Both the position numbers and the translations under genes were made by a program. A stretch of 40,000 bases of DNA, taken from assembly GCF_017873415.1 (NCBI RefSeq), contig NZ_JAGGKD010000001.1, positions 403,973 through 443,972 of the forward strand. The letters are read 5' to 3'. This document shows positions 20,518-38,032 of this stretch, piece after piece. This stretch comes from Methanolobus bombayensis. Lineage in GTDB: Archaea > Halobacteriota > Methanosarcinia > Methanosarcinales > Methanosarcinaceae. Position 1 is the stretch's first letter; the number at the start of each line of letters is the position of its first letter. The notes under the pieces were generated by a model. The model had not been told where the DNA came from. It did no database searches and saw only the letters and a program-made list of their open reading frames with translations.

Positions 20518-20556
20518 GGGATATATACAAGGCGAAAAAAGTGTACGCTTTTGCAA
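20518..20556. repeat. Casposon 1 left terminal inverted repeat
   Basis: GGGATATATACAAGGCGAAAAAAGTGTACGCTTTTGCAA matches the reverse complement of 29461-29499 (GGGATATATACAAGGCGAAAAAAGTGTACGCTTTTGTAA) with one mismatch. Confidence 0.9.
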
Positions 20557-20730
20557 GCATCCCACATAACTATATTATAGAGTTATCAAAGAAAATATTT
20601 TATTTGCATAAATCAGAAGTACAACTCACAGTTTTCTAATATATTCATCTGCTTCGAAATACAATAATTCCACATATGACAAATACAGAAGGAATAAGTC
20701 TATAAATTTAAATACTTCTCAAGCAATTCT

Positions 20731-21366
20731 TTGATGAATAAAATGTTTAATATCAAAAAGGTTACTTCACATATCTTTAATGCAGTAATTCAGGGTTTAA
20801 TATTTGGACTTACTGGGACAATATTAATTTTTGCAATAATATTCATAGCTATTTCACTGTTTCCTACACTCAAAATGTTTGTGCCCTTTACTACTGAAAA
20901 CATGGAGTTATTAAATGTTTCTCTTACGGTTGTTTTTGTATTTGTAACTAGTATTTACGTTTATTTTACATATCAAATTGTGGAACAGTCTTCTATTGAT
21001 CGAAAGATTTCTTTTACTGAAAAAAAACTTGTAAACTTCTATTACCCATTAGAAGATTTCATGAAATTTTCTGTCAAAGCCGTGGGAGATGAACCAAATG
21101 AAAGAGAATTGAGGCGAGATTCAGGTCTTGACACGGTAGAAAAAAGAAATTCCAATCCTATTTATCGAGATATTGTAAAAAACAAATATCTTGCTGACAA
21201 TGAAACCAGAGCCATTTTAGATTCTTTTTTAGACATTTTATCACAGAACAGCAGGTCAAAAAAACCCGAGCATTTATCTGTTTATGATAATTTAAACGCT
21301 TTAGTAAGTTTGAAAATAAAATCTTCACTTGAAGAACTCAATTCATTACTAAATGAGAAAAAATAA
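20731..21366 (+). CDS. Hypothetical membrane-anchored protein (casposon 1 left-arm cargo)
   Basis: The 211-aa product has two N-terminal TM segments and then a charged helical domain. It has no counterpart in casposon 2. The track start is TTG 20731, with an ATG at 20734. Confidence 0.5.
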   Translation: MMNKMFNIKKVTSHIFNAVIQGLIFGLTGTILIFAIIFIAISLFPTLKMFVPFTTENMELLNVSLTVVFVFVTSIYVYFTYQIVEQSSIDRKISFTEKKLVNFYYPLEDFMKFSVKAVGDEPNERELRRDSGLDTVEKRNSNPIYRDIVKNKYLADNETRAILDSFLDILSQNSRSKKPEHLSVYDNLNALVSLKIKSSLEELNSLLNEKK

Positions 21367-21446
21367 TTTCTACACTTAAAGTTAAAGGGGTAATTAGCTC
21401 ATACTTTATTTGTCAAACAATACTTGCAATTATTTTCAAATTACCT

Positions 21447-22649
21447 TTAATATCCATCCCACATCTCCAATCTTTCCTTAACATGAGCATTCACACTAAA
21501 CGGTTTATCCCCTTTTGCATTCTTCTTCATGTAGTGTAATGTACCCTTAGAGAATCCCATTTTCTTCCATTCGGTATAGCCAATAGCAAGAATCTTCTTT
21601 CTAAGAATATCAGTGTCATCCCTCTTCCCAACATAAGCAGGCTTACTAAAATCAATCATTTTTCTATTACCTGTGAGATGTTGAGCTAATTCTCTACCTT
21701 TCAACAACAGGACACTACCCCAAGTAGTATTCTTTTTCCTGTACTCAACTTTACCATTCATCACAGAATTAAACTCAGCAGTGAGCTTCTTTGCTCCTGA
21801 AGGCTTTAGCCTAAGTGAATAACTCTCTGTCCTGATGAAGTCCTTATCCTCCATTGCTTCTTTTTCAATAAGATTAACAACCGCAAGATCAACAAGGAAT
21901 CTAAAAGGCTCTTGGAAATCATAAGCTAAACTATGCTTGCTTGGATTCATTTCATGCAAAAAACCAACACGTGAATCAAGACCTACTGAATTAATAATTC
22001 GTAAACATTCAGATTCAAGTAAAGAATATCCATAATTGAGCATAACATTGGTTTTATCTCCTGCTCCCATTGGACGCCTGTACTTGTCAATTCTTGCTTT
22101 AAAATCATATTCAATAGGAATGACTTTGTTAAACTCATTCCAATACTTCCAAGCAATACCGCCTTCAATACCCATTAATTCCCTGATGGATTTTACATTT
22201 TTGATTTTTCCTTTATCGGTGGTAAAATCATAATCAACTTCGGAGTATCTTTGTTTAAGATAATCAAGCACAGCTTCAGATTTAGATATTTTAGCTTCAA
22301 TGAATTTCTTAGCTATCTTTAATCTAGTTTCCTCATTCTCAAAAGCGTGATATTGAGCAAACTTAATCTTTACATTTGCACTTTCAGGTGGAAGCATTGT
22401 TGTCAATAATTTGCCATCCCAATTAAGTATGGTAACCTGTACATTGTGTTTAACAAGCCATCTAATAGCCTCAATACTGATGTTGCCACTTTTACCATAA
22501 ATTACAATGCTGTCAATATCCATTCTTTTGGGTGAGAATGTGTATTTTTCAGGCTCTTCATTTGCGGAAAATCTGCCATCCTTGACATGTAGTTTAGCAT
22601 TGCTGACACGCATGTCTATTCCATGACCATTTAGTAAGAGCATCTTCAT
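21447..22649 (-). CDS. cas1: Cas1-family integrase (casposase)
   Basis: The 400-aa product starts MKMLLLNGHGIDMRV. Its Cas1 catalytic-region motifs are MGIEGG and VGFLHEMNPSKHSLAYDFQEPFRFLVD, and it has a C-terminal HTH (GFSKGTLHYMKKNA). No cas2 or cas4 lies adjacent. The start overlaps the stop of the upstream wHTH gene (TAATG). Confidence 0.9.
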   Translation of the reverse strand: MKMLLLNGHGIDMRVSNAKLHVKDGRFSANEEPEKYTFSPKRMDIDSIVIYGKSGNISIEAIRWLVKHNVQVTILNWDGKLLTTMLPPESANVKIKFAQYHAFENEETRLKIAKKFIEAKISKSEAVLDYLKQRYSEVDYDFTTDKGKIKNVKSIRELMGIEGGIAWKYWNEFNKVIPIEYDFKARIDKYRRPMGAGDKTNVMLNYGYSLLESECLRIINSVGLDSRVGFLHEMNPSKHSLAYDFQEPFRFLVDLAVVNLIEKEAMEDKDFIRTESYSLRLKPSGAKKLTAEFNSVMNGKVEYRKKNTTWGSVLLLKGRELAQHLTGNRKMIDFSKPAYVGKRDDTDILRKKILAIGYTEWKKMGFSKGTLHYMKKNAKGDKPFSVNAHVKERLEMWDGY

Positions 22650-23521
22650 TAGAATTTCTCCACAGCATCCTTATTCTCTTTAAAATGATCGTCATGCATT
22701 CCAAGATGAGTCATAGCTATGACTCTTACTTGAGCAATGAACTGAGCAGGCTCTTCTTTGCCCTCTAATCTTAACTTTTCCTCAAAATCATAGAGTTCTT
22801 CCCTGTGATCCTCTATTACAAAGGCTGTATAGTTAGAATTATAATCAAGAAGGTCATGAAGGTTGTCTAACTCTTCAGCATCCTTTTTTAGTCTGTCAAT
22901 AATAGCACTATCGTTATAGTATCCTAGTAAAAAGATAAAATGAGTTCTAAGGTTCTTGTGTCCATGTGGTAATGGCTTAGGGTACTTATTCAATAGGCTT
23001 CTAAGCATCTTAATAGCTTCTTGTCTGTTATAGGGTTCTATATCCTTTTTATCTATGTATGTATAGACTATTCTTAGGATATTGTCTATAAGGTCTATGT
23101 CTTCTGTGTCTAATTGGGCTATAAGTATGTCTAATTGGAGAGGATTGAGTAGACAGTGTTTCTCATATCTTTCCAGTTCTTTAAGTGCCATTTTTTGTAT
23201 TATAGGATTATTAGTGGATATTTTACCTATAATCGTATCTATATGTCTTCTTATTTCTTCTGTTTTTTTAAGAGTAAAAAAGCTAGCTCTACCATCCTCT
23301 ACTCTTATTCCTGCTTTTTTAAGAGTATCGCCTTTAAGCTTAGATACTATACCTCTATCCACCATACTGTCAAGCTTTCGATTGATACTCTTGTCACTAT
23401 ATCCACTATCCCCTCTATGCTTATTTTTGAGGGTTTGTATGAGTTGCGACCTTCTAACATAGCCTTGATTGGATAATATTCGTCTGACTTCTTGGTCAAA
23501 GTCTAACCCTTTTTTATACAT
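22649..23521 (-). CDS. Winged-helix DNA-binding protein with a helical-repeat C-terminal domain (casposon core gene)
   Basis: The 290-aa product has an N-terminal wHTH-like region (VRRSQLIQTL...SINRKLDSMVDRGIVSKL). It is collinear with the gene at 31762-32634 in casposon 2 and translationally coupled to cas1. Confidence 0.7.
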   Translation of the reverse strand: MYKKGLDFDQEVRRILSNQGYVRRSQLIQTLKNKHRGDSGYSDKSINRKLDSMVDRGIVSKLKGDTLKKAGIRVEDGRASFFTLKKTEEIRRHIDTIIGKISTNNPIIQKMALKELERYEKHCLLNPLQLDILIAQLDTEDIDLIDNILRIVYTYIDKKDIEPYNRQEAIKMLRSLLNKYPKPLPHGHKNLRTHFIFLLGYYNDSAIIDRLKKDAEELDNLHDLLDYNSNYTAFVIEDHREELYDFEEKLRLEGKEEPAQFIAQVRVIAMTHLGMHDDHFKENKDAVEKF

Positions 23522-23627
23522 ACTTATACCCTAGTTGATATAAGAACTATATCATATTTATACCTAATCTTATACTCACTTTCTGTACAGATATGATGAG
23601 GTACATAGTGTTTTATTGTGACTTATT
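23522..23627. promoter_or_regulatory. Divergent control region of the casposon 1 core (between the wHTH-cas1 operon and the RHH-polB operon)
   Basis: This 106-bp AT-rich intergenic region has TATA-like elements (tatatcatatttatacc). About 93% of its first ~88 nt are identical to the equivalent region of casposon 2 (32635-32723), a higher identity than I see in the flanking coding sequence. Confidence 0.5.
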
Positions 23628-23768
23628 ATGTCCGGTAAAGCAAGAATGATAGTTAGCCTTTCTTCTTACCTTAAGGAGAAAGTGGAATCGTACTCTGAGA
23701 AATATGGCTGTTCTCAAGCTGAAGTGGTGAGAATGGCTCTTATAAGGTATCTGGAGGATGAAGAATGA
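23628..23768 (+). CDS. Ribbon-helix-helix (CopG/MetJ-like) small DNA-binding protein
   Basis: Absent from the track (46 aa). My translation is MSGKARMIVSLSSYLKEKVESYSEKYGCSQAEVVRMALIRYLEDEE, which has the beta-strand, helix, helix pattern of RHH proteins. Its stop overlaps the next start (ATGA). Confidence 0.7.
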   Translation: MSGKARMIVSLSSYLKEKVESYSEKYGCSQAEVVRMALIRYLEDEE

Positions 23769-24409
23769 GCAGACCTGAATTTACCAGAGAATACAGGACT
23801 TATGGAGAATGGCTCAAAGCAATGCCAAGAGATACGAGGTATGCAAAGGAGATCATCAGGAAACACCAGATGTTTCCAGATAAGAGCCTGAATCAATTGA
23901 GAAAATTGAAACTATCTGATGCATCTCTTGCATCTAGGTCATTTGATGCATTATCACCCGTACAGCGAGATATGAGAAAAAGAGCTGTTCTTGCAGTAAA
24001 TGACATGAGAAAGGGTAAATCCCTTACCACAGCGGCAAAAGAGCAGGGAATCAGTGTACAGGACGCTCTCAAGCATCTTGGAAATGCAGTGTATAAGAAA
24101 AATGGACGTTGGGTTGCTACAAAGAGCGATGCCATTGAAAGAGGCAGATGGTTCTATTCTAACGGTAAAAGAGTTAGTGTTGTTGTCAAAAATTCAAAGG
24201 ATGCATCACTTGTCAGTAAGTATCTGAATGCTGTCAGGACTGCATTAAGGACAGGAGATGAAGCAGCACTCAAGCCATTCAAGAATGTTACAATAGAGGG
24301 TGCTGATGGGAAGGATTACCCACTTGAGACAGACCTTGAGAAGCTGTATGAGGCAAATGAACAAATCGAGGACTCTGAGTTCTTGCCAATATACGATGAT
24401 AGGAACTAA
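23765..24409 (+). CDS. Conserved casposon protein of unknown function (possible HTH)
   Basis: The 214-aa product is collinear with the gene at 32874-33512. Both start MSRP.F.REYRTYGEW.KA and end ETDL.KLYE..E.IE..EF. It contains an HTH-like segment, SLTTAAKEQGISVQDALKHLG. Confidence 0.6.
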   Translation: MSRPEFTREYRTYGEWLKAMPRDTRYAKEIIRKHQMFPDKSLNQLRKLKLSDASLASRSFDALSPVQRDMRKRAVLAVNDMRKGKSLTTAAKEQGISVQDALKHLGNAVYKKNGRWVATKSDAIERGRWFYSNGKRVSVVVKNSKDASLVSKYLNAVRTALRTGDEAALKPFKNVTIEGADGKDYPLETDLEKLYEANEQIEDSEFLPIYDDRN

Positions 24410-24437
24410 ACAACCTTAATTCAAGCAGGGGATAGGT

Positions 24438-24794
24438 TTGTCCAACGAAGATTTTATTTTGCAGATAAAACAGCAAGCTAAGAGCGAACAGCTTGTTAAA
24501 AATGGTATCTGCGAAATTTGTGGAGAGACTAATCCCTATGCTTTGAAAATCTACGAGAATCATCACATTTCCACAAGAGGCTTTTCGGATGAAACAAGAG
24601 TGCTTTGTCTGAACTGTCATGCTGCTGTAACTCATTTTCAAAATGAACTCCCTCCTAAGTTTAGATCAAGCCAATTACCGCTAGAGGAGAGACTTGACTA
24701 TGTTCTGCTTACACATGCGGCACTCAGGAAAAGAATGGATGAGATTGAGATTGATTTGTTAAGAAAGAGATATGAGGGAATTAAAAATGAATAA
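24438..24794 (+). CDS. HNH endonuclease
   Basis: The 118-aa product has CEICGE...YENHHIS...LCLNCHAAVT, the HNH/zinc-finger pattern. It uses a TTG start. A homologue sits at the same position in casposon 2. Confidence 0.75.
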   Translation: MSNEDFILQIKQQAKSEQLVKNGICEICGETNPYALKIYENHHISTRGFSDETRVLCLNCHAAVTHFQNELPPKFRSSQLPLEERLDYVLLTHAALRKRMDEIEIDLLRKRYEGIKNE

Positions 24795-27483
24795 TGTTGC
24801 ATTGAGGACATTCTCAACAAAAGAGGAAGAGATGAAGAAACAATTTCCTTACACGTATAAACAAGAGATACCTGATTTTTCCAGAGTCTTGACATTCGAT
24901 ACTGAAACAACAGCAGATGAGTTCCTTAACCTGAAGTTTGGCTCGTTCATGGTACATGAGAATGACGTGTATCAATATGCAGGCTTGTTCTGGGATGACA
25001 GACATGTATCAAAAAAAGAGTATAAAGTGCTGAAAGCGTATGCAGAGAAGTACAACATACGCTTATTCTCTCTTGAAGAGTTTATCAAGATATTTTATTT
25101 GGAAATCTACGAAAGAAAAACGCTCTGTATTGGTTATAACATCAACTTCGACCTGTCACGGATAATTTTAGATTATGGGCATGGCAGGTATTCAGGCAAG
25201 GATGGATTCTCCTTCAAACTAACTGAAGATACAACCTATCCACGTCTTCGCATCAAGCACCTGACAGGCAGATCATACAACGTTGAGTTTACAAGAGCAA
25301 AGGGTAAGTACAGGAAAGAGAGGACGTTCAAAGGTCATTTTCTGGATGTAGCCAATCTTGCATGTACATTGACCGACAATAAATCTCTCACACTTGAGAA
25401 GGCTTGTGAGATATTTGATACTCCAATAAAGAAGAAATCAATAAGCAAACATGGAGTAATAACTCCAAACTATATTGATTACAACATTACAGACGTAAGA
25501 TCAACTTATGAGCTATTCAAAAAAGTAAGCCAGGAGTATGAAAGGTATCAGTTGGCGATTCCAATGACTGATATTTACTCTGCTGCTTCTCTTGGAAAGC
25601 AGGCACTTAATCAGTTCAACATTGCACCTTTTATGCAGCATAATAATGATTTTCCTCCTGAACTTATCGGTAATCAGATGAGTGGATACTATGGAGGAAG
25701 ATGTGAGTGCAAGATAAGGAGAACACCTACTAAGGTTACAGTTCTGGATTTCTTCAGTATGTACCCAACTGTAACCCTCCTTCTTGGTCTTTGGGATTTT
25801 GTGATTGCAGATAAAATCCATCATGTTGATGACACAGAGAACGTCAGGCAATTTATTGAAGAATTTACGTTTGAGGATGCTCTTAACCGTGATATTTGGG
25901 AGAAGCTAAACGTTCTTGTTGAAATAGAGCCTGATGATGATATTCTACCTGTTAGAACAAAGTATGCAGGAGAGGATGGAACGTTAAACATCGGTATTAA
26001 TCACATAACAATGAATGAATCGTTGTATTACTTCTTGCCTGACATTCTTGCCTCAAAGCTGCTTACAGGTAAAACTCCCAAGATAAAGAGAGCTATCAGG
26101 TTTATTCCTGAAGGCATACAGGAAAGTCTCACAGAATCAGAAGTCTATGGAGTTCATGTGAATCCAAAAGAGGATAATCTCATCAAAGTTCTCGTTGAAC
26201 GTAGGCAGGAGATTAAGAATGAGATGAAGAAGGTATCAAAGGACTCTCATGACTATGATGTTCTGGATGCACAACAGAGAGCCTTGAAGATTCTTAATAA
26301 TTCCACAACATACGGGATTTATATTGAGATGCATCCAAAGGAAGAGGAAAAACTGAGAGTATTTAGCAACGTTGAGTTTGATTCTAAAGGAAAATATGAA
26401 CAGCCTGGGAAATACTTCAATGCCATCATAGGAGCAAATATTACAGCAGGAGCAAGGCTATTGCTTGCTATTGCAGAGAAGTTTGTGATGGATAAAGGTG
26501 AGGTTCATGCATACATGGATACAGATTCTATTTTTGTTCCTCCGCATCTTGCAGACGAATTGAGTCATCTTTTTGATTCTCTGAATCCTTATGATTTTGA
26601 TAAGCCAATCCTTGAGATTGAGGACGGAATGGAAGACATTTGGTTCTATGGTATCAGTTCCAAGAGATATTGTTTGTTCAGGGAAGAAGGAAATAAGATC
26701 ATCATTCCTGAAGGAAAGAAGCTGTTCTATAAACTGCATGGATTAGGACACATAACAAATCCATTCAAAAGGGAATTGGAGGAAGGAGACCAATGGCACA
26801 AGAAGTTATGGGAGGATATTCTCAGAGTCCATTTTCATCCTGAAGAGCTTCCTGATGTGTTGGAGAAATATGAGAACTATGCTGTAATTTCTAAACTTGC
26901 AGTTTCAACAGGAACAATATTGAGACGATTTGAGAGAATGAACGAAGGGAAGCCATTTGATAAACAAATCAAGCCTTTCAACTTCATGCTTGTTGGGAGT
27001 GGTGCAACAATCAATGAGGATGGGGAGAAGGTCAAGCCTGTTGCTCCTTACAACAATAATCCACAAGTTGCTATTGAGAATGAGTTCATAGACTACAATA
27101 CAGGAGATACGCTTCAAGGAAGGGAATACTGGAAGCCATTAAGTGATGTATTCCTTGATTACATAAATCATCCTGAAGCTAAATTTGAAGGAGATATAGG
27201 AGTACTGCAAAGGAGACATCTTACTCCTACTGGGTGCGTGTATATTGGTAAGGAAGCAAATAAGGTTGAAATGCAGGAATTAGAGAGCAATGAAGTTGAG
27301 ATATACCACGATATAGAGAAGATAAGGGAATTTGTTCTAGGTTTAAAGCCTGATAAAGCTAAAGAGATTGGAATTGAGCATAGGAGCGCATTAAAGCAAT
27401 TGAAGGATAGGGTAAGAGAAGGAGACTTTAATATGAATACTAAATTGATGAGGATGGTAATAGGAAAAATTTATAGTAGATAA
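24772..27483 (+). CDS. polB: Family B DNA polymerase (casposon PolB)
   Basis: The exonuclease motifs are ExoI FDTETT, ExoII YNINFDLSRI and ExoIII YNITDV. The polymerase motifs are A LDFFSMYPT, B KILNNSTTYG, C YMDTDSIF and KxY SSKRY. By homology with the casposon 2 copy, the likely true start is ATG 24787 (MNNVALR...). Confidence 0.9.
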   Translation: MRELKMNNVALRTFSTKEEEMKKQFPYTYKQEIPDFSRVLTFDTETTADEFLNLKFGSFMVHENDVYQYAGLFWDDRHVSKKEYKVLKAYAEKYNIRLFSLEEFIKIFYLEIYERKTLCIGYNINFDLSRIILDYGHGRYSGKDGFSFKLTEDTTYPRLRIKHLTGRSYNVEFTRAKGKYRKERTFKGHFLDVANLACTLTDNKSLTLEKACEIFDTPIKKKSISKHGVITPNYIDYNITDVRSTYELFKKVSQEYERYQLAIPMTDIYSAASLGKQALNQFNIAPFMQHNNDFPPELIGNQMSGYYGGRCECKIRRTPTKVTVLDFFSMYPTVTLLLGLWDFVIADKIHHVDDTENVRQFIEEFTFEDALNRDIWEKLNVLVEIEPDDDILPVRTKYAGEDGTLNIGINHITMNESLYYFLPDILASKLLTGKTPKIKRAIRFIPEGIQESLTESEVYGVHVNPKEDNLIKVLVERRQEIKNEMKKVSKDSHDYDVLDAQQRALKILNNSTTYGIYIEMHPKEEEKLRVFSNVEFDSKGKYEQPGKYFNAIIGANITAGARLLLAIAEKFVMDKGEVHAYMDTDSIFVPPHLADELSHLFDSLNPYDFDKPILEIEDGMEDIWFYGISSKRYCLFREEGNKIIIPEGKKLFYKLHGLGHITNPFKRELEEGDQWHKKLWEDILRVHFHPEELPDVLEKYENYAVISKLAVSTGTILRRFERMNEGKPFDKQIKPFNFMLVGSGATINEDGEKVKPVAPYNNNPQVAIENEFIDYNTGDTLQGREYWKPLSDVFLDYINHPEAKFEGDIGVLQRRHLTPTGCVYIGKEANKVEMQELESNEVEIYHDIEKIREFVLGLKPDKAKEIGIEHRSALKQLKDRVREGDFNMNTKLMRMVIGKIYSR

Positions 27484-27500
27484 AATCTTTAAAAAGAGTT

Positions 27501-28388
27501 GTGACTGGTAAATCTATCAAGGAAATAATTGAAGATCATAAAAAAATCATGTCTTCTCTAAACATCAATAAAACTCTAAATAACTTAAGTAGTTCATTTA
27601 TTCTACCTTCTTCTTTCAATAATGGTAGGCAAAAGTCTTTAAAAAAAGTAATAACCGAGATAAATGAATATGAAAAAGCTGGTAACAACTATTCTGACGA
27701 AATTTGCCACACATGTAATAAAAAAATAAATAGTCATCTATTTTACTCTTTAAGAAAATATGAAGAGGTACAATTAGATGATGATTTGGAATATAGAGTA
27801 GAGGATCAATTAGAAGACAAACTAATTGAATGTAATGATTTTTGTTCAGGCTCTTGCCTTGAAGCATTTTCTGACAAACATGAAGAGACAATTGAGGAAT
27901 ATGAACTATATGAGGTCAGAAGATGTTCTTGTTATTATGACTGTCTTGATCTTGAAAACATAAGAGGGATTTGTGAAAGAGAAGAACGTTTAGATTATGA
28001 ATCTAACCTTTTCCCATCACTTCCATTACATAATTTTTGTGAACCAGCTGACGCAGGCATAATCAAAGCATCAATAAATATTAAAAAGCAATTAGACGAA
28101 GGATCAAAGCAAAATTCAGATCATTTTAAGATAACAGCAGTAATGACTATATTAGTAATATTGTTAACTATCGCCAATATTTTCCTTGTAATTGATACAA
28201 ATTATGAACATCAGCTAGATAGTATAGATGCAAAACTTGGTGCGATTAACAACAGTCTCTCATCTCTTAATAATCAAGCCAATGACATTAATTCTGAACT
28301 AGATCCAAGCACTCTTTTAGTCAGTAGTAATTTAGAAAACTCTCTAGATAATACCAATAAGACAGTTGAATTCTCAAATAAAAGTTGA
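27501..28388 (+). CDS. Hypothetical Cys-rich protein with a C-terminal TM segment (casposon 1 right-arm cargo)
   Basis: The 295-aa product uses a GTG start. It has several Cys clusters (CHTCNKK, CNDFCSGSC, CSCYYDC), one TM segment (ITAVMTILVILLTIANIFLVI) and an N/S-rich tail. It has no counterpart in casposon 2. Confidence 0.5.
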   Translation: MTGKSIKEIIEDHKKIMSSLNINKTLNNLSSSFILPSSFNNGRQKSLKKVITEINEYEKAGNNYSDEICHTCNKKINSHLFYSLRKYEEVQLDDDLEYRVEDQLEDKLIECNDFCSGSCLEAFSDKHEETIEEYELYEVRRCSCYYDCLDLENIRGICEREERLDYESNLFPSLPLHNFCEPADAGIIKASINIKKQLDEGSKQNSDHFKITAVMTILVILLTIANIFLVIDTNYEHQLDSIDAKLGAINNSLSSLNNQANDINSELDPSTLLVSSNLENSLDNTNKTVEFSNKS

Positions 28389-28399
28389 AATATTCAAAT

Positions 28400-29669: not shown

Positions 29670-30551
29670 ATGGTTAATGACAATCCTAATATTTTTTACA
29701 AATATCGAAGTGTTAATGAAAATACAATTAAAATGCTAGAAAACCAGGAATTGTATTTTAGTGGTGCTTCAGATTTCAATGATCCTTTTGATTCAAAAGC
29801 TGACTTGATTTGGAGGGGCAATAAAGATGATTGGATGAGCTTTTTATATAGAATGGGTATTAAGAACCATGCACAACGCGAACAATCCATCAAAGAAAAC
29901 CTTAAAAATGGGTCTTTAAGAAATAGAAAAGGAGAATATTTATTAGACCCAAATAGAACTGCTTTTAAGGTACTTAAAGGGAATATTCAACTTAATAATA
30001 AACCTGATTTTCCGAGAGCTTGTTGTTTTAGCGAAGACAACGATAGTATCTTAATGTGGAGTCACTATGCAGATGAGCATAAAGGAATATGCTTATGCTT
30101 TAAATCTAAAATAATAGAGACGGGAGATTTTTTATATTTAGATTCTAATCCTGATCCCTACCTACTTTTTCCAATAACATATCAAGAAGACATGCCTGAA
30201 CAAGTAAACATGTTGAGCAGTTATGAACCTGAAGAATTGGTATCTTTTTTATGCACCAAACATTTTGATTGGAAGTATGAAAAAGAGCGTCGTTTGATAA
30301 TGTGGCCTATTGATTTCAATACTCATGGGCAATATACTAAAAAATTTAGAAAAGAAGATTTAGAAGGAATTATTTTTGGGTTGAATACCCCTACTGACCA
30401 TATAAAAATGATTAAGACGATTATAGACGAACAATACCTTAAAGAAGGTTTTAAAGTTAATTTCTATAAGGCTCAGGAATTGCAAAAAAAATATGGTATT
30501 TATATTAAGCCAATAGACGATTTAGATAAGCACATAGAAAAATACTGTTAG
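29670..30551 (+). CDS. DUF2971-family protein (casposon 2 left-arm cargo)
   Basis: The 293-aa product has IFYKYRSVNENTIKMLENQELYFSGASDFNDPFDS and CFSEDNDSILMWSHYADEHKGICLCF. Both match the DUF2971 signature as I remember it. Confidence 0.65.
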   Translation: MVNDNPNIFYKYRSVNENTIKMLENQELYFSGASDFNDPFDSKADLIWRGNKDDWMSFLYRMGIKNHAQREQSIKENLKNGSLRNRKGEYLLDPNRTAFKVLKGNIQLNNKPDFPRACCFSEDNDSILMWSHYADEHKGICLCFKSKIIETGDFLYLDSNPDPYLLFPITYQEDMPEQVNMLSSYEPEELVSFLCTKHFDWKYEKERRLIMWPIDFNTHGQYTKKFRKEDLEGIIFGLNTPTDHIKMIKTIIDEQYLKEGFKVNFYKAQELQKKYGIYIKPIDDLDKHIEKYC

Positions 30552-30559
30552 AAAACACA

Positions 30560-31762
30560 TCAATAATTGTCCCATATCTCCAATCTTTCCCTTACATGAG
30601 AGTTTAGAGTAAATGGCTTATCAGCCTCAGCATTCTTCTTCATGTAATGGAGAGTACCTTTTGAGAAACCCATTTTCTTCCAGTCAGAATATGATATGCT
30701 CAATATCTTTTGCCTAATATCATCTGAATCCTGTCTTTCAACACTATAAGCAGGCTTACTGAAATCAAGTGTTTTCCTTTTCCCAACAAGATACTGAGCA
30801 AGCTCCCTAGTTTTCAACAATAAGGCATAACTCCACATAACAGACTGCTTCTTGTATGGAACTTTTTTGTTCATCCAGTTATTGAACTCTTCAGTCACCT
30901 TCTTAGCTCCTGAAGGTTTAAGCCTAAGTGAATAGCTCTCAGTCCTGATAAAGTCTGTATTATCCATCTTCTTGGACTCAATAAGACTGATTACAGCCAT
31001 ATCAACAAGGAATCTGAAAGGCTCTTGAAGATCATAAGCTAGACTGTTCTTACTTGGATTCATCTCATGTAAAAAACCTACATGAGCATCAAGACCTGCT
31101 GTATTAATTGCTCTTAGGCATTCAGCTTCAAGCAAAGCATATCCATAATTAAGCATGACATTAACTTTGTCTCCTGCTCCTGTTGCTCTCCTGTATTGGT
31201 CTATCCTTGAACAGAAATCATATTCTTCTGGAATAGCTTTGTTAAACTCGTTCCAGTATTTCCAAGCAACTCCGCCTTCAATCCCCATTATTTCCCTAAT
31301 GTTTTTAGCAGATTTTAGTTTTTCAATATCCTCTGAGAAATCATAATCTATTGCAGGATACCTTTGCTTCAGATAATCCATAACTACAATGGATTTATCA
31401 AACTTTGCTTCAATGAACTTCCTTGCTATCTTGATTCTGCTTTCTTCATCCTCAAAAGCATGATACTGAACAAACTTAGTCTTAACATTGGTAGTTTCAG
31501 GAGGTTGTAAGGTACTTAGAATTTTACCGTTCCAATCAAGGAAAGTAACCTGAACATTGTGTTTAATCAACCATCTGACAGCATCAAGAGTCAGATTTCC
31601 ATTCCTGCCATAAACAATGATGTGGTCTATATCCATCCGCTTTGGAGAGTAAACATACTCTTCAGGTTCTTCAGTAGATGAAGTTCTGCCATTCTTGATA
31701 TGCAGTTTAGCACCACTAACACGCATATCTATTCCATGACCATTGAGAAGAAGCATTTTCAT
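30560..31762 (-). CDS. cas1: Cas1-family integrase (casposase)
   Basis: The 400-aa product is collinear with, and clearly homologous to, the gene at 21447-22649. It carries the same motifs (MGIEGG, VGFLHEMNPSKNSLAYDLQEPFRFLVD, C-terminal GFSKGTLHYMKKNA). Confidence 0.9.
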   Translation of the reverse strand: MKMLLLNGHGIDMRVSGAKLHIKNGRTSSTEEPEEYVYSPKRMDIDHIIVYGRNGNLTLDAVRWLIKHNVQVTFLDWNGKILSTLQPPETTNVKTKFVQYHAFEDEESRIKIARKFIEAKFDKSIVVMDYLKQRYPAIDYDFSEDIEKLKSAKNIREIMGIEGGVAWKYWNEFNKAIPEEYDFCSRIDQYRRATGAGDKVNVMLNYGYALLEAECLRAINTAGLDAHVGFLHEMNPSKNSLAYDLQEPFRFLVDMAVISLIESKKMDNTDFIRTESYSLRLKPSGAKKVTEEFNNWMNKKVPYKKQSVMWSYALLLKTRELAQYLVGKRKTLDFSKPAYSVERQDSDDIRQKILSISYSDWKKMGFSKGTLHYMKKNAEADKPFTLNSHVRERLEIWDNY

Positions 31763-32634
31763 TAAAATCCCTCCACATCAGCATTATTCTGAACAAAAGG
31801 ATCATCATACATTCCAAGATGAATCATGGCTCTAACTCTTACCTGAGAAATGAACTGAGCAGACTCTTCTTTTCCCTCTAGTCTTAATTTTTCCTCAAAT
31901 TCATAGAGGTCTTCCCTATGTTCCTCTATTACATGTGCTGTATAGTTAGAGTCATAATCTTCCATTTCATGAAGGTTATCTAATTCCTCTGAATCCTTTT
32001 TTAGCCAATCAATAACAGCACTATCATTGTAGTGTCCTAGTAAATAGATAAAATGAGTTCTAAGGTTCTTATGTCTATGAGGTAATGGCTTAGGATATTT
32101 AGACAATAAACCTCTAAGCATCTTAATAGCTTCTGGTTTGTTATAGGGTTCTATATTCTTTATGTCTATATAGGTATAGACTATTCTTAGGATATGGTCT
32201 ATAAGGTCTATATCCTCTGTGTCTAGTTGGGCTATAAGTATGTCTAATTGACTAGGGTTAAGAGTATATCGTTTCTTATATTTTTCAAGCTCTTTAAGAG
32301 CCATTTTTTGTATAATAGGATTATTCGAGGCTATTTTTCCTATAATCGTATCTATATGTCTCTTTATTTCCTCTGTTTTTTTAAGAGTAAAAAAGCTAGC
32401 TCTACCATCCTCTACTCTTATCCCTGCTTTTTTAAGAGCATCCCCTTTAAGTTTAATCACTATGCCCCTTTTTACCATACTGTCTAACTTTCGATTGATA
32501 CTCTTCTCACTATAACCACTATCTTTTTTGTGTCTGTTTTTTAGAGTTAGTATGAGTTGTGCTCTTCTAACATACCCTTGTTTTGATAATATGTCTTTAA
32601 CCTCTAGGTCAAAATTTAACCCTTTTTTATACAT
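31762..32634 (-). CDS. Winged-helix DNA-binding protein with a helical-repeat C-terminal domain (casposon core gene)
   Basis: The 290-aa product is a homologue of the gene at 22649-23521. Its stop overlaps the cas1 start. Confidence 0.7.
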   Translation of the reverse strand: MYKKGLNFDLEVKDILSKQGYVRRAQLILTLKNRHKKDSGYSEKSINRKLDSMVKRGIVIKLKGDALKKAGIRVEDGRASFFTLKKTEEIKRHIDTIIGKIASNNPIIQKMALKELEKYKKRYTLNPSQLDILIAQLDTEDIDLIDHILRIVYTYIDIKNIEPYNKPEAIKMLRGLLSKYPKPLPHRHKNLRTHFIYLLGHYNDSAVIDWLKKDSEELDNLHEMEDYDSNYTAHVIEEHREDLYEFEEKLRLEGKEESAQFISQVRVRAMIHLGMYDDPFVQNNADVEGF

Positions 32635-32736
32635 AATTATACCCTACTTGATATAAGAAATATATCATATTTATACCTAATCTTATACTCAGTTTCTGTA
32701 CAGGTATGATGAGTTACATAGTGTATTTTGACTAAC
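32635..32736. promoter_or_regulatory. Divergent control region of the casposon 2 core
   Basis: This is the counterpart of 23522-23627 and is nearly identical in sequence, including the TATA-like tatatcatatttatacc. Confidence 0.5.
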
Positions 32737-32877
32737 ATGACTCACAAAGAAAGACTTGTAATAAGCCTTTCTTCTTACCTTAAGGAGAAAGTGGAATCGT
32801 ACTCTGAGAAATATGGCTGTTCTCAAGCTGAAGTAGTGAGAATTGCTCTCATACGGTATCTGGAGGATGCAGCATGA
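32737..32877 (+). CDS. Ribbon-helix-helix small DNA-binding protein
   Basis: Absent from the track (46 aa). My translation is MTHKERLVISLSSYLKEKVESYSEKYGCSQAEVVRIALIRYLEDAA. Its stop overlaps the next start. Confidence 0.7.
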   Translation: MTHKERLVISLSSYLKEKVESYSEKYGCSQAEVVRIALIRYLEDAA

Positions 32878-33512
32878 GCAGACCTCAATTTTCCAGAGAA
32901 TACAGAACTTATGGGGAATGGTTCAAAGCTCAACCCAGGAACACAAAGTATGCAAAAGAGATCATCAGGAAACATAAACTATTTCCAGATAAGAGCCTGA
33001 GCCAACTAAGAAACCTTAGAATAAGTGACTATGACCTGAGCCAAACAGCATGGAAAACTCTCACATCTCAACAGAAGAGAGATAGAAACCTAGCTCTTGA
33101 GGTTTTAAGATCTATTAGAAAGGGCGAATCACTAACTCAGGCTTTGAAGAAAAGAGGACTCAGAAAGGATTTCGTACTCAAAAATCTTGGTAATCAACTT
33201 CAGAAGTCAAAAGGAAAATGGGTTGCAACTAAGACAGACAGCTTAGAAGTTGAAATGTTGGTTTATACAAAAGATGGAGTAAGAACCGTTGTAGCCACAT
33301 CTTCTAAAGACAGGAGCAGGATTGCAAAATACTTCAATGATGTACAGAAGGCATTGAAGAATAATGATTCCTCAATACTTGCCAAATACAAGAGAATGAA
33401 GCTCATTGATGCTGAAGGAAATGAACATCATTTTGAAACAGACCTTGACAAACTGTATGAGATACAGGAAACAATAGAAGAGCCTGAATTTTTGGAGATT
33501 TATCAGAACTGA
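32874..33512 (+). CDS. Conserved casposon protein of unknown function
   Basis: The 212-aa product is a homologue of the gene at 23765-24409. Confidence 0.6.
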   Translation: MSRPQFSREYRTYGEWFKAQPRNTKYAKEIIRKHKLFPDKSLSQLRNLRISDYDLSQTAWKTLTSQQKRDRNLALEVLRSIRKGESLTQALKKRGLRKDFVLKNLGNQLQKSKGKWVATKTDSLEVEMLVYTKDGVRTVVATSSKDRSRIAKYFNDVQKALKNNDSSILAKYKRMKLIDAEGNEHHFETDLDKLYEIQETIEEPEFLEIYQN

Positions 33513-33515
33513 GGA

Positions 33516-33857
33516 GTGGATACTATGAGTAAAGAAACCTATGCAAATACCGTAAAGAGAAGTAAAAAAGGAGAGATACCACACCTTGCATGTGTTGTAT
33601 GTGGGGAAGATGATCCCGATTTGATAGAGATGCATCATGTTGATGGAAGGAATAATTCAGAGTGGAAAAAACCTCTCTGTAAGAATCATCATTTCAAGGT
33701 AACAATGAAGCAAAATAAAGTAAGCCCAAAAGCAAGGTCAAAAGACACTTCTTTGCAGAACCTTAGAGCTTTTAATATAATCTCTATTGGGGCTTTAGTT
33801 GTTGAACTTGGAAACCGCTTGATAAAAGTTGGATATGAGATGGTTGAAAATGTCTGA
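33516..33857 (+). CDS. HNH endonuclease
   Basis: The 113-aa product has CVVCGE...EMHHVDG...LCKNHHFKVT. The track start is GTG 33516, and an ATG at 33525 follows a GGAG. Confidence 0.75.
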   Translation: MDTMSKETYANTVKRSKKGEIPHLACVVCGEDDPDLIEMHHVDGRNNSEWKKPLCKNHHFKVTMKQNKVSPKARSKDTSLQNLRAFNIISIGALVVELGNRLIKVGYEMVENV

Positions 33858-36510
33858 TAAGCTAGCACTTAGGGTTTATACACAGAAGGCAGGTAAGAAA
33901 AAAACCACGCCTTCTACTTTTAAAGAAGACCTCATCCTTCATCATAGAAGGGTATTAGTCTTTGATACTGAAACTACAACAGATCAATACCAAAACATGA
34001 AGATAGGTTTCTTTCAAATCTATCAGGATGGAGGAATACAGCATGAAGGGTTATTTTATGATCCTTCTATGCTTGATGAAGAGGAAACTGAGGTCTTTAA
34101 GGAATATTCTCTCAAGAATGACATTTCTCTTTACACTCTTGAAGAGTTTGTTGATGATGTATTTTATCCAGAGGTCTTGGGTTTCAAAGCTCTTTGTGTA
34201 GGATTCAATTTACCATTTGACATAAGCAGGATAGCTAAAAAGGTTGGGGATTCAAGAGGATATAATAAAGGAGGTTTTACTTTTACTCTCTCCGATAAAG
34301 AAGAGAATCCTCAAATTGTCATTAAAAAACTTGGCTCAGCATACAGTTTCAAGTTGAATGGAACAAAGGAGAATCAGGGCAAAAACAGGCATAATGGTTA
34401 TTTTATCGATGCTCAGACGCTTGCTGAGGTTTTACTTCAAAAAAAGCATATTTCCCTTGAAAAAGCCTGCAAGTTCCTCAAAACAAAAACTCAGAAAATA
34501 GAAGGCGTAGAACATGGAAAAGTAACTGACGAGTATATTGATTATCTTATCACGGATGTTCGCGCAACTTGGGAAGTATATGAGAAACTTATAGATGAAT
34601 TAAGGATTTATCAAATCAATATCCCACCTACGAAAATATACAGTAATGCTTCAGTTGGTAAATATGCATTAAAGCAGTTAGGAGTAAAACCTTTCCTTGA
34701 ATTGAATCCTGATTTCTCTCCTGTATTGCTTGGAAACATCATGTCTTCTTATTATGGAGGGAGATGCGAATGCAAGATAAGAAAAGTACCTACTAAGGTT
34801 ACAGTCCTTGATTTTACAAGCATGTATCCAACGGTTACAATGCTTCTTGATCTCTGGAAGTTCATTATTGCTGAAAGTATTGAAACAAAGGATGTAACAG
34901 AGAAAATTAAAGAGTTACTTTCAAACATAAACCTTGAGTTCTTTCAAAATAAGGATAATTGGAAGGACTTTGTTGTAATGGTTAAGTTACATCCAGATGA
35001 GGACATTTTGCCTGTAAGGAAGAATTACAAGGGAGATGGAAGTGCGTATAATGTGGGTGTCAATAATCTGACATCTGACTTTGAACTATGGTATGCTTTA
35101 CCTGATGTTATAAGCTCAGTTCTTTTAACTGGAAAAGTACCTGAGATTGTGGAAGCTGTTAAATTTATTCCAGTAGGCATTCAGGAAGGTTTGAAGGAAA
35201 CAGAGATTCTTGGAATTAAGATTAATCCTAGAAAGGAGAACTTAGTTCAGGTTCTTGTTGAGGAAAGACAAAAGATAAAACAGGAATTAGAGACTTTAAA
35301 TAAAGAGCACCCTGATTATCAGCACCTTAAGAGCAGGGCACAGGCTATTAAGATTCTAGTTAACTCAATGAGTTATGGAATCTTTATTGAACTGAATCCA
35401 GAGGATAAGAAAAGCACTATTGAAGTACATGGGTTAGATAGTTTTGAAACAACAGATAACAAGTATGAGAAAGAAGGAAAATATTTCCATCCTCTGCTTG
35501 CTTCAATGATTACGTCGGGTTCAAGATTATTCTTAGCTATGGCTGAAGCTAAAGTAAAGGAACTTGGTTCTGTTCATGCTTACATGGATACTGATAGTAT
35601 TTTTGTCATTCCAGAACATGCTCAGGAAGTTGTTGATTATTTCAACAAGCTAAATCCTTACAATCCTGAACTTGATATTCCTCTTTTAAAGAAAGAAGAC
35701 GGGAAAGAAGATGTGTGGTTCTATGGTATCTCTTCAAAGCGTTATGTTCTTTACAGGATTATTGATGGGAAGTTTGAGCTAGTAGATTACAAGTTGCATG
35801 GTCTTGGTCATTTAACAAACCCATTTTCAAATAAAGATGATTGGCAACAGGAAATATGGTTAGATATTCTTATGGTACGTTATGGAATTGTAAAACCTGA
35901 AGACATTGAGCTTAAGTATTCTACTATGTATGCAATTTCTAGGCTTACTGTCAGTACTCCTAATGTTCTGCATAGGTTTGATAAGTTAAATGAAGGAAAG
36001 GAGTGGAAAGAGATGATAAAACCTTTTAATTTCTTCCTTGTTGGCTTCCAGACAAAAGAAGAGAACAATAAAGCTGTCAAGCCTTTAGCTCCTTTTACAA
36101 AGGACTATCAGAGGATAGTCTATGAGTATTTCATAGATTATGAAACAGGAGAGAGGAAAAAAGGAGTACATTATTTTAAGCCATTGAGTAGGACAATATC
36201 TCAGTATGCAGAGCATCCAGAACATAAATTTGAAGGAGGCATAGGAGTATTGGAAAGAAAACACGTTCATGCTAAGGATACTATTGAGATAGGAAAGGAA
36301 GCTAACAGCATAGATGAGCAGTCTCTTGGAGTCAAGAAAGCACAGGAATTCAGGAATAAGGAGAAGATCATGCAGAAAATACTCAATATTTCTGTATCTG
36401 AAGCTAAGGAATTAGGAGTTCCTAAGACTACATTATGGGATATGCAGAAAAGGATAAGGGAAACAGGAAAATTGAATTTGGGTACTCCTGCTGTGAGGAA
36501 GATGATATGA
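33829..36510 (+). CDS. polB: Family B DNA polymerase (casposon PolB)
   Basis: The exonuclease motifs are ExoI FDTETT, ExoII FNLPFDISRI and ExoIII YLITDV. The polymerase motifs are A LDFTSMYPT, B KILVNSMSYG, C YMDTDSIF and KxY SSKRY. The likely true start is ATG 33850 (MSDKLALR...). Confidence 0.9.
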   Translation: MDMRWLKMSDKLALRVYTQKAGKKKTTPSTFKEDLILHHRRVLVFDTETTTDQYQNMKIGFFQIYQDGGIQHEGLFYDPSMLDEEETEVFKEYSLKNDISLYTLEEFVDDVFYPEVLGFKALCVGFNLPFDISRIAKKVGDSRGYNKGGFTFTLSDKEENPQIVIKKLGSAYSFKLNGTKENQGKNRHNGYFIDAQTLAEVLLQKKHISLEKACKFLKTKTQKIEGVEHGKVTDEYIDYLITDVRATWEVYEKLIDELRIYQINIPPTKIYSNASVGKYALKQLGVKPFLELNPDFSPVLLGNIMSSYYGGRCECKIRKVPTKVTVLDFTSMYPTVTMLLDLWKFIIAESIETKDVTEKIKELLSNINLEFFQNKDNWKDFVVMVKLHPDEDILPVRKNYKGDGSAYNVGVNNLTSDFELWYALPDVISSVLLTGKVPEIVEAVKFIPVGIQEGLKETEILGIKINPRKENLVQVLVEERQKIKQELETLNKEHPDYQHLKSRAQAIKILVNSMSYGIFIELNPEDKKSTIEVHGLDSFETTDNKYEKEGKYFHPLLASMITSGSRLFLAMAEAKVKELGSVHAYMDTDSIFVIPEHAQEVVDYFNKLNPYNPELDIPLLKKEDGKEDVWFYGISSKRYVLYRIIDGKFELVDYKLHGLGHLTNPFSNKDDWQQEIWLDILMVRYGIVKPEDIELKYSTMYAISRLTVSTPNVLHRFDKLNEGKEWKEMIKPFNFFLVGFQTKEENNKAVKPLAPFTKDYQRIVYEYFIDYETGERKKGVHYFKPLSRTISQYAEHPEHKFEGGIGVLERKHVHAKDTIEIGKEANSIDEQSLGVKKAQEFRNKEKIMQKILNISVSEAKELGVPKTTLWDMQKRIRETGKLNLGTPAVRKMI

Positions 36511-36522
36511 GTTGTTTTGTTG

Positions 36523-37833
36523 CTAAATAATAACTCTGGATTTTAGTAAATATGTTCGGGCTCCATTTGAAACAGCTTGTTCTCTGCTTACTAATTTTTT
36601 GTCAACCAAAGATATTACAATTCTTGAACATTTACGTGAGTCAACCTCAAGCTTCTTCCAAAGTTGATTTTGATAAATATCATCTTCTGCGATGATTATT
36701 TCTAACGCAACCCTCTCTAATTGTGTTAAACCTTTTTTATCAGATGGTGTTAAAATAGGTTTTACAGGAATGTTTCCCACTTTGACTAGAAGATTAGCAT
36801 ATAAGTCAATTAATTCCTGACAAAAGTTATAACTTATGGGAAGAACACCTACCATTTCACCCTTCTTTGCGTCATTCCAAGCAAAACCCTCAATTCCAAT
36901 ATTAAAATTTAAACCTGCAACTAGCTGTTCATCTGAGTTTTTTATACTAATCTGTTGGTTATCATGTAAGTCTTCGGTTGCAAGTGCAATAATACAGTCA
37001 TCAAATTGAGATAAGATTTGTTCAGCTGTTTCTTTAAAAAATATATATTCATCCTTGATTTCTTTTTCTTTACTTAAAAAAGCAGACTTTTCTTCAAATA
37101 ATTTTGAATTATAATTAACCAACTGATAAAAATTTTTTAATATTCTTTTTCTACTTGCAAATAATAATTTAATATTTCGAATTTGTTCTTTTTCTTTTTT
37201 TGATTCTTGGAACAGACCATGATATAAACATTTATCTCCTTTCGATAAACAAGATTTTTCAAAATATCTTGCAACAAACCTTTCTGCACTCTCTTTTGAT
37301 TGTCCTGTTAGTTGAACAAGAGCATTAATTCCACCTTCTTTATATACTGCATACCTTTCTGCTTCTAGTCTTTCTTGTTCTTGTATTTCCTTTCCTACAT
37401 TCTCTTTTAAAATCTTGATGTGCTCTTTTCTTTCTTTTTCTTCCCAACTAAGTTTTTCAATATTTGTGTATGTATTATTTAAGTAATTATGAACAAAATA
37501 TTGAAGACTAGCTGTGTTTTTTCCTGTTAATTTAGTAAGAGCCTGAATACCCCACATTTCATAAATTCTAATTTTTTCATAATTATAAAAAAGGATATTT
37601 CCGTTTACAAAACGTGACATAAAATTTACATCTGATTTACATGCTTTACAAAACCATTTATTCCTTTCTCCCAAAAATTCCACAGATGGTTTAAAGCAAT
37701 ACGGACAAACAATTGATGTTTTCTTAACAAGTGATTCGGTTTCATCAATTTTAAAAACTTCATGTCTAAATTGATTAATTTCCTTTATTGTATATTTTGT
37801 ATCATTTTCGGTTTTTTCCATCAGCTCACCCAA
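36523..37833 (-). CDS. Hypothetical protein with an N-terminal zinc ribbon, an internal duplicated motif and a C-terminal wHTH (casposon 2 right-arm cargo)
   Basis: The 436-aa product has CPYCF...CKACKS. An internal motif is duplicated (GIQALTKLTGKNTASLQYFVHNY and GINALVQLTGQSKESAERFVARYF). The C-terminus has a MarR-like wHTH (NQLWKKLEVDSRKCSRIVISLVDKKLVSRE). It has no counterpart in casposon 1. Confidence 0.55.
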   Translation of the reverse strand: MGELMEKTENDTKYTIKEINQFRHEVFKIDETESLVKKTSIVCPYCFKPSVEFLGERNKWFCKACKSDVNFMSRFVNGNILFYNYEKIRIYEMWGIQALTKLTGKNTASLQYFVHNYLNNTYTNIEKLSWEEKERKEHIKILKENVGKEIQEQERLEAERYAVYKEGGINALVQLTGQSKESAERFVARYFEKSCLSKGDKCLYHGLFQESKKEKEQIRNIKLLFASRKRILKNFYQLVNYNSKLFEEKSAFLSKEKEIKDEYIFFKETAEQILSQFDDCIIALATEDLHDNQQISIKNSDEQLVAGLNFNIGIEGFAWNDAKKGEMVGVLPISYNFCQELIDLYANLLVKVGNIPVKPILTPSDKKGLTQLERVALEIIIAEDDIYQNQLWKKLEVDSRKCSRIVISLVDKKLVSREQAVSNGARTYLLKSRVII

Positions 37834-38002
37834 AAACCATAATCTTGCAATAACAAAACTTCATTATAACATAAATATTACGGAATAAAAAAGAAAACAT
37901 TTTTGAATTTTATTTTAATACTCGTATTATATATGTCATAATATTATTATTAGGAGTTCCGTTTTTCTCAAATTGACAGGAAAAATTAGAGTTTTTTATG
38001 GA

Positions 38003-38032
38003 AGTTCGGTTTTTTGGGCTTACCTATTACCC
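38003..38032. repeat. Casposon 2 right terminal inverted repeat
   Basis: agttcggttttttgggcttacctattaccc is the reverse complement of the left TIR with 2 mismatches. Confidence 0.85.

Follow-up and report, generated by a model that had tools for sequence, protein, structure and literature searches.

Two tandem family-2 casposons at a Methanolobus tRNA-Leu gene carry variants of one end-repeat design

Introduction

Casposons, the Cas1-driven transposons, are the proposed ancestors of the adaptation machinery of CRISPR. Here we describe two of them, which lie head-to-tail at a tRNA-Leu gene in a 40,000-nucleotide stretch of the archaeon Methanolobus bombayensis (positions 403,973 to 443,972 of contig NZ_JAGGKD010000001.1; hereafter the window, in whose numbering coordinates are given unless another locus is named), and consider how far their different-looking terminal inverted repeats are tied to their Cas1 proteins, the casposases.

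The closest described systems are the family-2 casposons of Methanosarcina, which Krupovic 2016 reported in tRNA-Leu genes, with tandem pairs divided only by their shared duplication, a 14-bp target-site duplication with an invariant CGCA, end repeats conserved in M. mazei, and repeats that are casposon-specific even within a single host (PMC4779613). MetMaz-C1, whose repeat is GGGATATAGGTAACTCAAAAAAACGCAACGC, is experimentally mobile, and a mini-casposon re-used the target beside it in vivo, giving rise to a tandem arrangement (PMC10359463). In the structure of the M. mazei casposase the terminal 3′-CCC is held by K238, Y243/M194 and Y206/R280, R191/R192 read the CGCA, and the HTH (helix-turn-helix) domain is essential (PMC6977970). 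For the casposase of Aciduliprofundum boonei, five terminal nucleotides are enough for integration in vitro, and, as its authors noted, the rest of the repeat must serve some other step (PMC6614799).

The window adds a new example to this group, in which tandem tRNA-Leu family-2 casposons, the CGCA motif and the MetMaz-C1 repeat are already published. Like the M. mazei family-2 casposons including MetMaz-C1 (PMC4779613, PMC6977970, PMC10359463), its elements combine a Cas1 bearing a C-terminal HTH with the same gene set and a 14-bp CGCA duplication; as in the MetMaz-C1 group, insertion is at the tRNA-Leu 3′ end, overlapping it by 4 bp; and the MetMaz-C1 repeat has G1-3, A6-8, A12, the A-tract and A28-C29 in common with both window repeats. 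Unlike MetMaz-C1, they reside in another host: the closest relatives of their Cas1 proteins among the loci listed are in Methanolobus metagenome-assembled genomes (MAGs; 85-93% identical), and identity to the MetMaz-C1-type Cas1 of locus L088, which contains the exact MetMaz-C1 repeat, is ~65%. In the inner part of the repeat they have GTGT and CCGA where MetMaz-C1 has CGCA, positions 9-11 of casposon 1 are TAC rather than GGT, and the lineage of the casposon 1 family B DNA polymerase (PolB) is 42-46% identical to the common Methanosarcinaceae PolB lineage. Tandem casposons are likewise seen in Met2HT1A3-C1/C2 (tRNA-Leu) and Met2HA1B4-C1/C2 (Krupovic 2016, Fig. 2); in the 2.H.T strains, however, one PolB is inactivated and the copies are closely related, whereas the window copies are intact and their PolBs only 45% identical. 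The distantly related AciBoo-C1 of A. boonei (PMC6614799, PMC5137440) resembles the window elements in belonging to family 2, in its tRNA 3′-end target, in its 14-15 bp duplication and in the C-run at the 3′ end of its repeat (TCCCC), but its target is tRNA-Pro and its repeat is 37 bp long. Finally, the stacking of site-specific transposons at one site recalls the Tn7 arrays at attTn7, an analogy drawn in Krupovic 2014 and 2016, albeit with unrelated machinery (TnsABCD versus Cas1).

We propose that the two window casposons would represent two old lineages with variant ends, with no one-to-one lock between casposase and repeat, a reading to which we assign a probability of roughly 0.65.

The tandem pair and its end repeats

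The window holds a pair of intact family-2 casposons, head-to-tail, at one tRNA-Leu target site. The target gene has the anticodon TAG (20422..20509 on the + strand by ARAGORN; 20423-20507, 46.3 bits, by the Rfam tRNA model), and, with the Rfam end at 20507, the gene closes with the CGCA from which the 14-bp duplication CGCATCATTTACCT starts, an overlap of 4 bp. This duplication is present in three copies that are 14/14 identical, namely 20504..20517, 29500..29513 (common to both casposons) and 38033..38046, all on the + strand. Between them lie casposon 1 (20518..29499; 8,982 bp; PolB-A lineage) and casposon 2 (29514..38032; 8,519 bp; PolB-B lineage), each delimited by an inverted repeat with a 14/14 duplication and supported by its gene content. 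Reading frames are intact in both, the duplications are perfect, and related elements occur at other sites (L002, L011, L015). The two would have been inserted successively into a single 14-bp target of CGCA type at the tRNA-Leu(TAG) 3′ end, which would have left the three identical duplication copies. These copies give no reading of the order of insertion; by leader-proximal analogy, casposon 1, which adjoins the tRNA, would be the newer.

The left terminal inverted repeat of casposon 1 (20518..20569, +), whose informative part, positions 1-32, reads GGGATATATACAAGGCGAAAAAAGTGTACGCT, matches the right one (29448..29499, -) over 52 nt at 87%, ungapped and free of mismatches for 36 nt from the tip. 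Its outer 30-mer, GGGATATATACAAGGCGAAAAAAGTGTACG, stands at 20518-20547 (+) and 29470-29499 (-) with zero mismatches. Casposon 2 has a 30-nt inverted repeat (left, 29514..29543, +, GGGTAATAGGTAACGCCAAAAAACCGAACT; right, 38003..38032, -) with 93% identity, its two mismatches against the left arm being at position 14, on the border of the free spacer described below, and at position 15, inside it.

A first-pass annotation of this DNA had drawn attention to these 30-mers, which are located where it placed them, and to a set of positions that they share: the GGG start, AA at 12-13, C at 16 and an A6 tract at 18-23 are all identical between the two repeats. It was mistaken in adding that the rest differs, as positions 6, 7, 8, 15, 26, 28 and 29 also match, which gives 19/30 ungapped identities where it had listed 12 (shuffle p = 6e-5, 200,000 shuffles). 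Different as they look, the two ends represent variants of a single, already known end design of ~30 bp.

A position map of the family-2 end repeat

A Cas1 alignment was built and 159 loci were fetched from genomes and metagenomes, among ~1,100 Cas1 matches; elements were then sought in them only as an inverted repeat with a 14-bp duplication, making no assumption about sequence. The search recovered both window casposons and 24 further non-redundant elements with Cas1 38%-93% identical to those of the window. One of them, L132, has a Cas1 38% identical and a repeat displaced by one G, and was not kept; with the two in the window, this makes 25 elements. All of these start with GGG, and 46 arms from 23 elements could be aligned without a gap, even as Cas1 identity fell to 50%. 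The fixed-position skeleton postulated by the first-pass annotation is borne out as regards this single register but only in part as regards its membership. Invariant in the 46 arms are G1, G2, G3, A12 and C29, and A6, T7, A8 and A28 are present in at least 90%; the conserved A6-T7-A8 and A28-C29 had been overlooked. Conversely, outside the window A13 is found in 52% of the arms, G15 in 20% and C16 in 41%, and the positions of the A-tract are A in 59-83%, the alternative being a T-tract in a subset of elements.

A second class of positions, namely 4, 5, 9-11, 13 and 24-27, varies between elements (between-element difference 0.36-0.75) and agrees between the two arms of one element (left/right mismatch 0-0.08). 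By contrast, the left/right mismatch reaches 0.36-0.44 at positions 15-17, and the arm mismatch of this spacer differs from that of the inner block with a Fisher p=2e-9. When the arms are laid out as a pseudo-stem, 27/32 arm-to-arm pairs have changed on both sides, and 92% of the cells are paired, versus 29-48% when the partner is slid. Discordant tracts or blocks between arms are confined to a few elements (L014, L086, L096, L118/L119 and L122). A case of spacer asymmetry is furnished by window casposon 2 and the element of L011, which occupy different sites: in both, one arm has AACGCC at positions 12-17, and the other has AAGCCC and AAGCTC, respectively. This spacer asymmetry is inherited, which implies that arms are not homogenised at each transposition, and hence the agreement of the arms at the variable blocks reflects selection. 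The variable blocks of the repeat thus look functional.

Taken together, these patterns describe a repeat that begins with a GGG tip (its complementary 3′-CCC being held in the casposase active-site channel), followed by variable positions 4-5, A6-T7-A8, variable positions 9-11, the invariant A12 and a free spacer at about 14-17; its inner part consists of an A- or T-tract at 18-23, a variable block at 24-27 and A28-C29. Judged by their sequences, the Methanosarcinales-type family-2 casposons, including the experimentally mobile MetMaz-C1, share this repeat design of ~30 bp. The same GGG..ATA/TAT..A12..AC ends recur, along with Cas1 50-59% identical, in the casposons of L025, L026, L027, L029, L032 and L034, whose contigs are attributed to archaea of DPANN type (Nanoarchaeota, Woesearchaeota, Iainarchaeum, Forterrea); in these, the duplication often closes with GCC/GCGCC, not CGCA.

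Variable blocks, casposases and other element genes

The two window casposases, both of 400 aa and encoded on the - strand (casposon 1, 21447..22649, Pfam Cas_Cas1 E=1.5e-69, with a C-terminal HTH extension; casposon 2, 30560..31762, Cas_Cas1 E=1.4e-69), had been described in the first-pass annotation as clearly diverged with shared motifs. An ungapped alignment over 400 aa gives 70% identity and 87% similarity, which is a moderate divergence, spread evenly over the N-terminal (68%), catalytic (71%) and HTH (69%) regions. The casposon 1 protein also aligns without a gap to the M. mazei casposase 6OPM (E=1.4e-183), so that the published residue numbering is directly applicable to it, and the ungapped alignment of the window pair carries the numbering over to casposon 2. 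Residues 342-398 match the C-terminus of the M. mazei casposase, with the HTH core GFSKGTLHYMK retained. Both window proteins possess the catalytic triad E162/H232/E247, R191/R192 and the end-binding residues W77, Y206, K238, Y243 and R280, whereas M194 is T in casposon 2; across the published end- and target-contact residues, the two casposases are alike except at M194 and N239. The earlier idea that conserved repeat positions are casposase contacts accordingly finds support at the GGG tip, where the 3′-CCC is held in the M. mazei structure (PMC6977970) by residues that are retained bar M194T.

The companion idea, that the variable positions give each Cas1 specificity for its own ends, predicted covariation of repeat and Cas1 in a larger set of casposons. 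Mantel and partial Mantel tests on 46 sequences, which have limited power and ignore phylogeny, gave r = 0.51 for whole-repeat distance against Cas1, which does not exceed the values for PolB (0.51), the HTH-HEAT protein (0.56) and the core protein p214 (0.53), the Cas1 HTH domain reaching 0.40. The arm symmetry of the blocks supports that idea indirectly; the weak covariation with Cas1 speaks against it. When the repeat is divided, the outer block (positions 4-13) correlates best with HNH (r = 0.68) and PolB (0.63), with a partial r given Cas1 of 0.46, and on these sequence distances it follows the PolB/HNH lineage. The inner block (24-32) correlates with nothing strongly: r is 0.13-0.33 overall and 0.13-0.19 against the Cas1 HTH domain and whole Cas1.

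Individual pairs of elements make the same point in both directions. L020 and the MetMaz-C1-type L088/L090 have Cas1 94%, PolB 89% and HTH-HEAT 94% identical, and their repeats are identical at positions 1-23, yet at 24-27 L020 has GTGT (on both arms) versus CGCA. L089 and L041 differ in both tracts and inner blocks with Cas1 95% identical; L081, L084 and L007, with Cas1 89% identical, have three inner blocks; and in the casposon 2 clade the tip is GGGTA or GGGAT at 92% Cas1 identity. Conversely, the repeat of window casposon 1 is nearly unchanged in L015, L019 and L025, whose Cas1 proteins are 68%, 66% and 59% identical to its own, and that of L025 shares 30/32 positions with it. Moreover, 7/7 PolB-A elements carry TA[C/T]A at positions 9-12 and GTGTACG on the PolB-side arm, whatever the Cas1 clade.

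Across clades, the repeat classes are not told apart by any column of the Cas1 alignment. The Cas1 HTH was considered as the seat of a specificity code, and this was rejected, given that the core GFSKGTLHYMK.NA..DKPF is nearly invariant across repeat classes and E379 tracks the C2 clade rather than the repeat class. Columns 152 and 309 show a loose association with the repeat, yet they are the same in L020 and L088.

Weighing the explanations

Under the preferred reading, the two window repeats would differ because their casposons belong to two old backbones that coexist in the Methanosarcinaceae and that would exchange the Cas1/HTH-HEAT module, whose proteins are 70% and 81% identical between the two casposons, against 45% for PolB, 30% for HNH and 48% for p214. 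Both casposases are likely able to use both kinds of end at strand transfer, inasmuch as their contact residues (bar M194 and N239) are alike, they share the same target, and little beyond the tip is needed in vitro. The variable blocks would then serve a step that unites both ends of one element, be it excision, synapsis or end pairing, and might be read by the casposase, by way of a few of its residues, by another protein or through pairing of the two arms. The deeply conserved classes of inner block argue for a sequence-specific reader; the want of protein covariation disfavours a simple lock set by the casposase, and a private lock, with each casposase matched to its own ends, is not supported by these comparisons.

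The contrary view, that the variable positions are read by an element's own casposase and that co-resident casposons do not mobilise each other, strikes us as unlikely but has several observations in its favour, which equally weigh against the reading that we prefer. Variable blocks that are the same on both arms and different between elements have exactly the look expected of a transposase-specific recognition code, although discovery of elements through their inverted repeats inflates the left/right agreement at the outer 13 positions. In each of two Cas1 clades a single inner block predominates: C[CG]GAACT in the C2 clade, the exception being TACCACT in one Cas1-distal arm in L082, and [AG]GATAC[TG] in the clade of L014/L085/L086. 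Once PolB is accounted for, the inner block correlates with Cas1 weakly but significantly (partial r=0.21, p=0.004), and Krupovic 2016 had remarked on repeats being casposon-specific even in one host (PMC4779613). Furthermore, with 46 sequences a specificity switch of a few residues among the ~24 differences of 94%-identical casposases may have gone unseen, and the published in vitro data cover integration only, not the recognition of ends at excision. Set against this are the casposases 89-95% identical with different inner blocks, those 59-68% identical whose repeats share as many as 30/32 positions, the two tips at 92% Cas1 identity, an HTH with a nearly invariant core and no higher correlation than the remainder of Cas1, the lack of any class-separating Cas1 column, and the ~5 terminal nt that suffice for A. 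boonei integration in vitro (PMC6614799).

The arm symmetry could also stem from arm-to-arm pairing in a single-stranded DNA stem or panhandle, as in the excision model of Krupovic 2014 (PMC4046053), in which case any sequence would work if the arms match, and tandem units would find their own partner end. The compensatory changes at 27/32 pairs and the failure of any element protein to track the inner block well are consistent with this, but it remains doubtful in view of the few discrete, deeply conserved inner classes (TGTACGC, GCAACGC, [CG]GAACT and GATACTCA), which recur from DPANN-type to Methanosarcina elements and so suggest sequence-specific reading rather than drift. Nor could certain arms pair: L014, L086, L096 and L122 have an A-tract on one arm and a partly or fully T-rich tract on the other, and the outer blocks of L118/L119 differ between arms. 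A somewhat less probable alternative makes the repeat, or at least its outer block, a recognition or origin site of the co-inherited replication module (PolB/HNH/p214). It would account for the correlations of the outer block with PolB and HNH and for the constant PolB-A signature, which extends to the hybrid element of L040; but common descent of repeat and PolB, with Cas1 swapped by recombination, explains the pattern with no appeal to function, family-2 PolBs are regarded as RNA-primed and not end-primed, and GTGTACG is also found with PolB-B in L020. That the shared positions are a chance likeness of two AT-rich sequences we consider extremely improbable: the region is indeed AT-rich, but nothing further favours this view in the face of the shuffle statistics and of the same register and invariant columns in arms from elements with Cas1 down to 50% identity. 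More speculatively, the repeat may constitute an element-specific, arm-symmetric address (positions 4-5, 9-11, 13 and 24-27), which would not be set by the casposase but read by arm pairing or by a partner linked to the replication module, and which would let tandem units excise singly; in that event the inner classes would amount to ancient alleles, exchangeable and reassorting between backbones. This extension is tentative, and we would sooner bet against it than on it.

Tandem arrays and hybrid elements

Tandem arrays are common, the fetched loci containing 23 distinct non-redundant junctions (repeat, 14 bp, repeat). An avoidance of like ends in such arrays was rejected, with the same inner class at 2/23 junctions versus 3.2 expected (p=0.35); neighbours average 11.7 mismatches as against 11.4 for random pairing, which gives no sign that they are chosen to differ. 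In L002, a Methanolobus MAG, three tandem casposons adjoin tRNA-Leu(TAA) at 3915-19926; its two complete casposons are the closest relatives of the window pair among the loci listed (Cas1 85% and 92% identical), and they have the same two repeat types as the window in the opposite order relative to the tRNA. In the M. mazei-like contig L088, positions 4039-4085 comprise a MetMaz-C1-type right end with the published duplication ATAATCTTAATGCG, 14 bp and a solo repeat, which is 29/32 identical to that of window casposon 1 and has no casposon genes behind it.

Elements with arms of two repeat classes and identical flanking duplications are found inside tandem arrays in L040 (2330-18631) and L006 (9697-12916). 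In L040 a PolB-A module and a C1-type arm are joined to a Cas1 of the AGATACT clade, and the other arm is AGATACT-type. These hybrids are best explained by deletion between tandem neighbours and show reassortment of modules; that same explanation makes them indecisive as proof of cross-mobilisation. L122, put forward in the same role, combines mildly discordant arms with a duplication of its own, yet an extra repeat is nested in it as well, and it is not decisive either.

Gene content of the two casposons

The core genes follow the same order in both casposons: Cas1, a 290-aa protein, a p214-type protein, a CxxC...HH protein and a PolB of ~900 aa. In casposon 1 the casposase gene is followed by that of the 290-aa protein (22649..23521, -), which occupies the position of the family-2 HTH-HEAT core gene by synteny, then by the conserved 214-aa core protein p214 (23765..24409, +), with homologues in related elements (36/46 at >=70% query coverage), a 118-aa protein (24438..24794, +) in the HNH gene position, whose Cys/His motif was read from the translation, and a 903-aa PolB (24772..27483, +; Pfam DNA_pol_B). 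Their casposon 2 counterparts are the 290-aa HTH-HEAT-position protein (31762..32634, -; assigned by position and homology to that of casposon 1), a 212-aa counterpart of p214 (32874..33512, +; 48% identity), a 113-aa CxxC...HH protein (33516..33857, +; motif and position) and an 893-aa PolB (33829..36510, +; Pfam DNA_pol_B_2 E=4e-11 and DNA_pol_B), these polymerase matches exceeding the Pfam cut-off. Profile searches with Pfam and NCBIfam found no match for the HNH-position proteins and no significant family for the p214 proteins; for the HTH-HEAT-position proteins they returned only a weak, sub-threshold Pfam match, HEAT_2 (E=0.0096, that of casposon 1), and nil from NCBIfam.

The most similar stretch between the two casposons, at 84% nucleotide identity, is the intergenic region that separates the divergent HTH-HEAT and p214 genes (23637-23919 versus 32746-33028), which contains a 17-nt repeat, CTGTTTTTTTAAGAGTA, in 2 copies per casposon. 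It is likely a regulatory region and possibly a recombination hotspot, to go by its sequence. The cargo genes, which lie at both ends of each casposon, differ, and none is common to both. Casposon 1 carries mainly small predicted membrane proteins; the cargo of casposon 2 (29670-30551 and 36523-37833) includes a DUF2971 protein and, adjoining the right repeat, a protein of 436 aa with a weak MarR-like winged helix at its C-terminus.

Surroundings of the locus

On the tRNA side, 138 bp upstream of the real gene, the tRNA-Leu upstream region is duplicated at 20239-20327 together with the tRNA's 5′ half, as far as the anticodon loop (83% identity); unrelated sequence follows this second copy, and neither ARAGORN nor Rfam calls a tRNA there. 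The copy may be left over from a previous rearrangement at this hotspot of integration. On the other side, a CRISPR array (38362-40000) starts 315 bp past the last duplication copy and continues beyond the window end, with at least 23 copies of a 37-nt repeat, GTTTCAATCCTTGTTTTAGTGGATCTTGATTTTGAAT, and spacers of 33-43 nt. Targeting of casposons by these spacers was examined and rejected, since 21 spacers gave only chance matches of 13-19 nt to the window and all fetched loci. No cas genes were seen among the larger open reading frames scanned in 1-20400. At a distance of 18 kb from the casposons, the host flank contains an IS605-type OrfB/TnpB gene (1230-2366; Pfam OrfB_IS605 and a Cas12f1-like TNB domain).

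Implications

How casposon ends are recognised at excision matters, for the published need at integration extends to only ~5 terminal nt. The comparison of elements presented here yields a position map of the family-2 repeat in which constant contacts are told apart from a free spacer and from variable blocks that match on both arms. Natural swap pairs, such as the MetMaz-C1-type and L020-type elements, which differ in the repeat at positions 24-27 only and have casposases 94% identical, would make the specificity of the family-2 casposases for their ends testable in the M. mazei systems.

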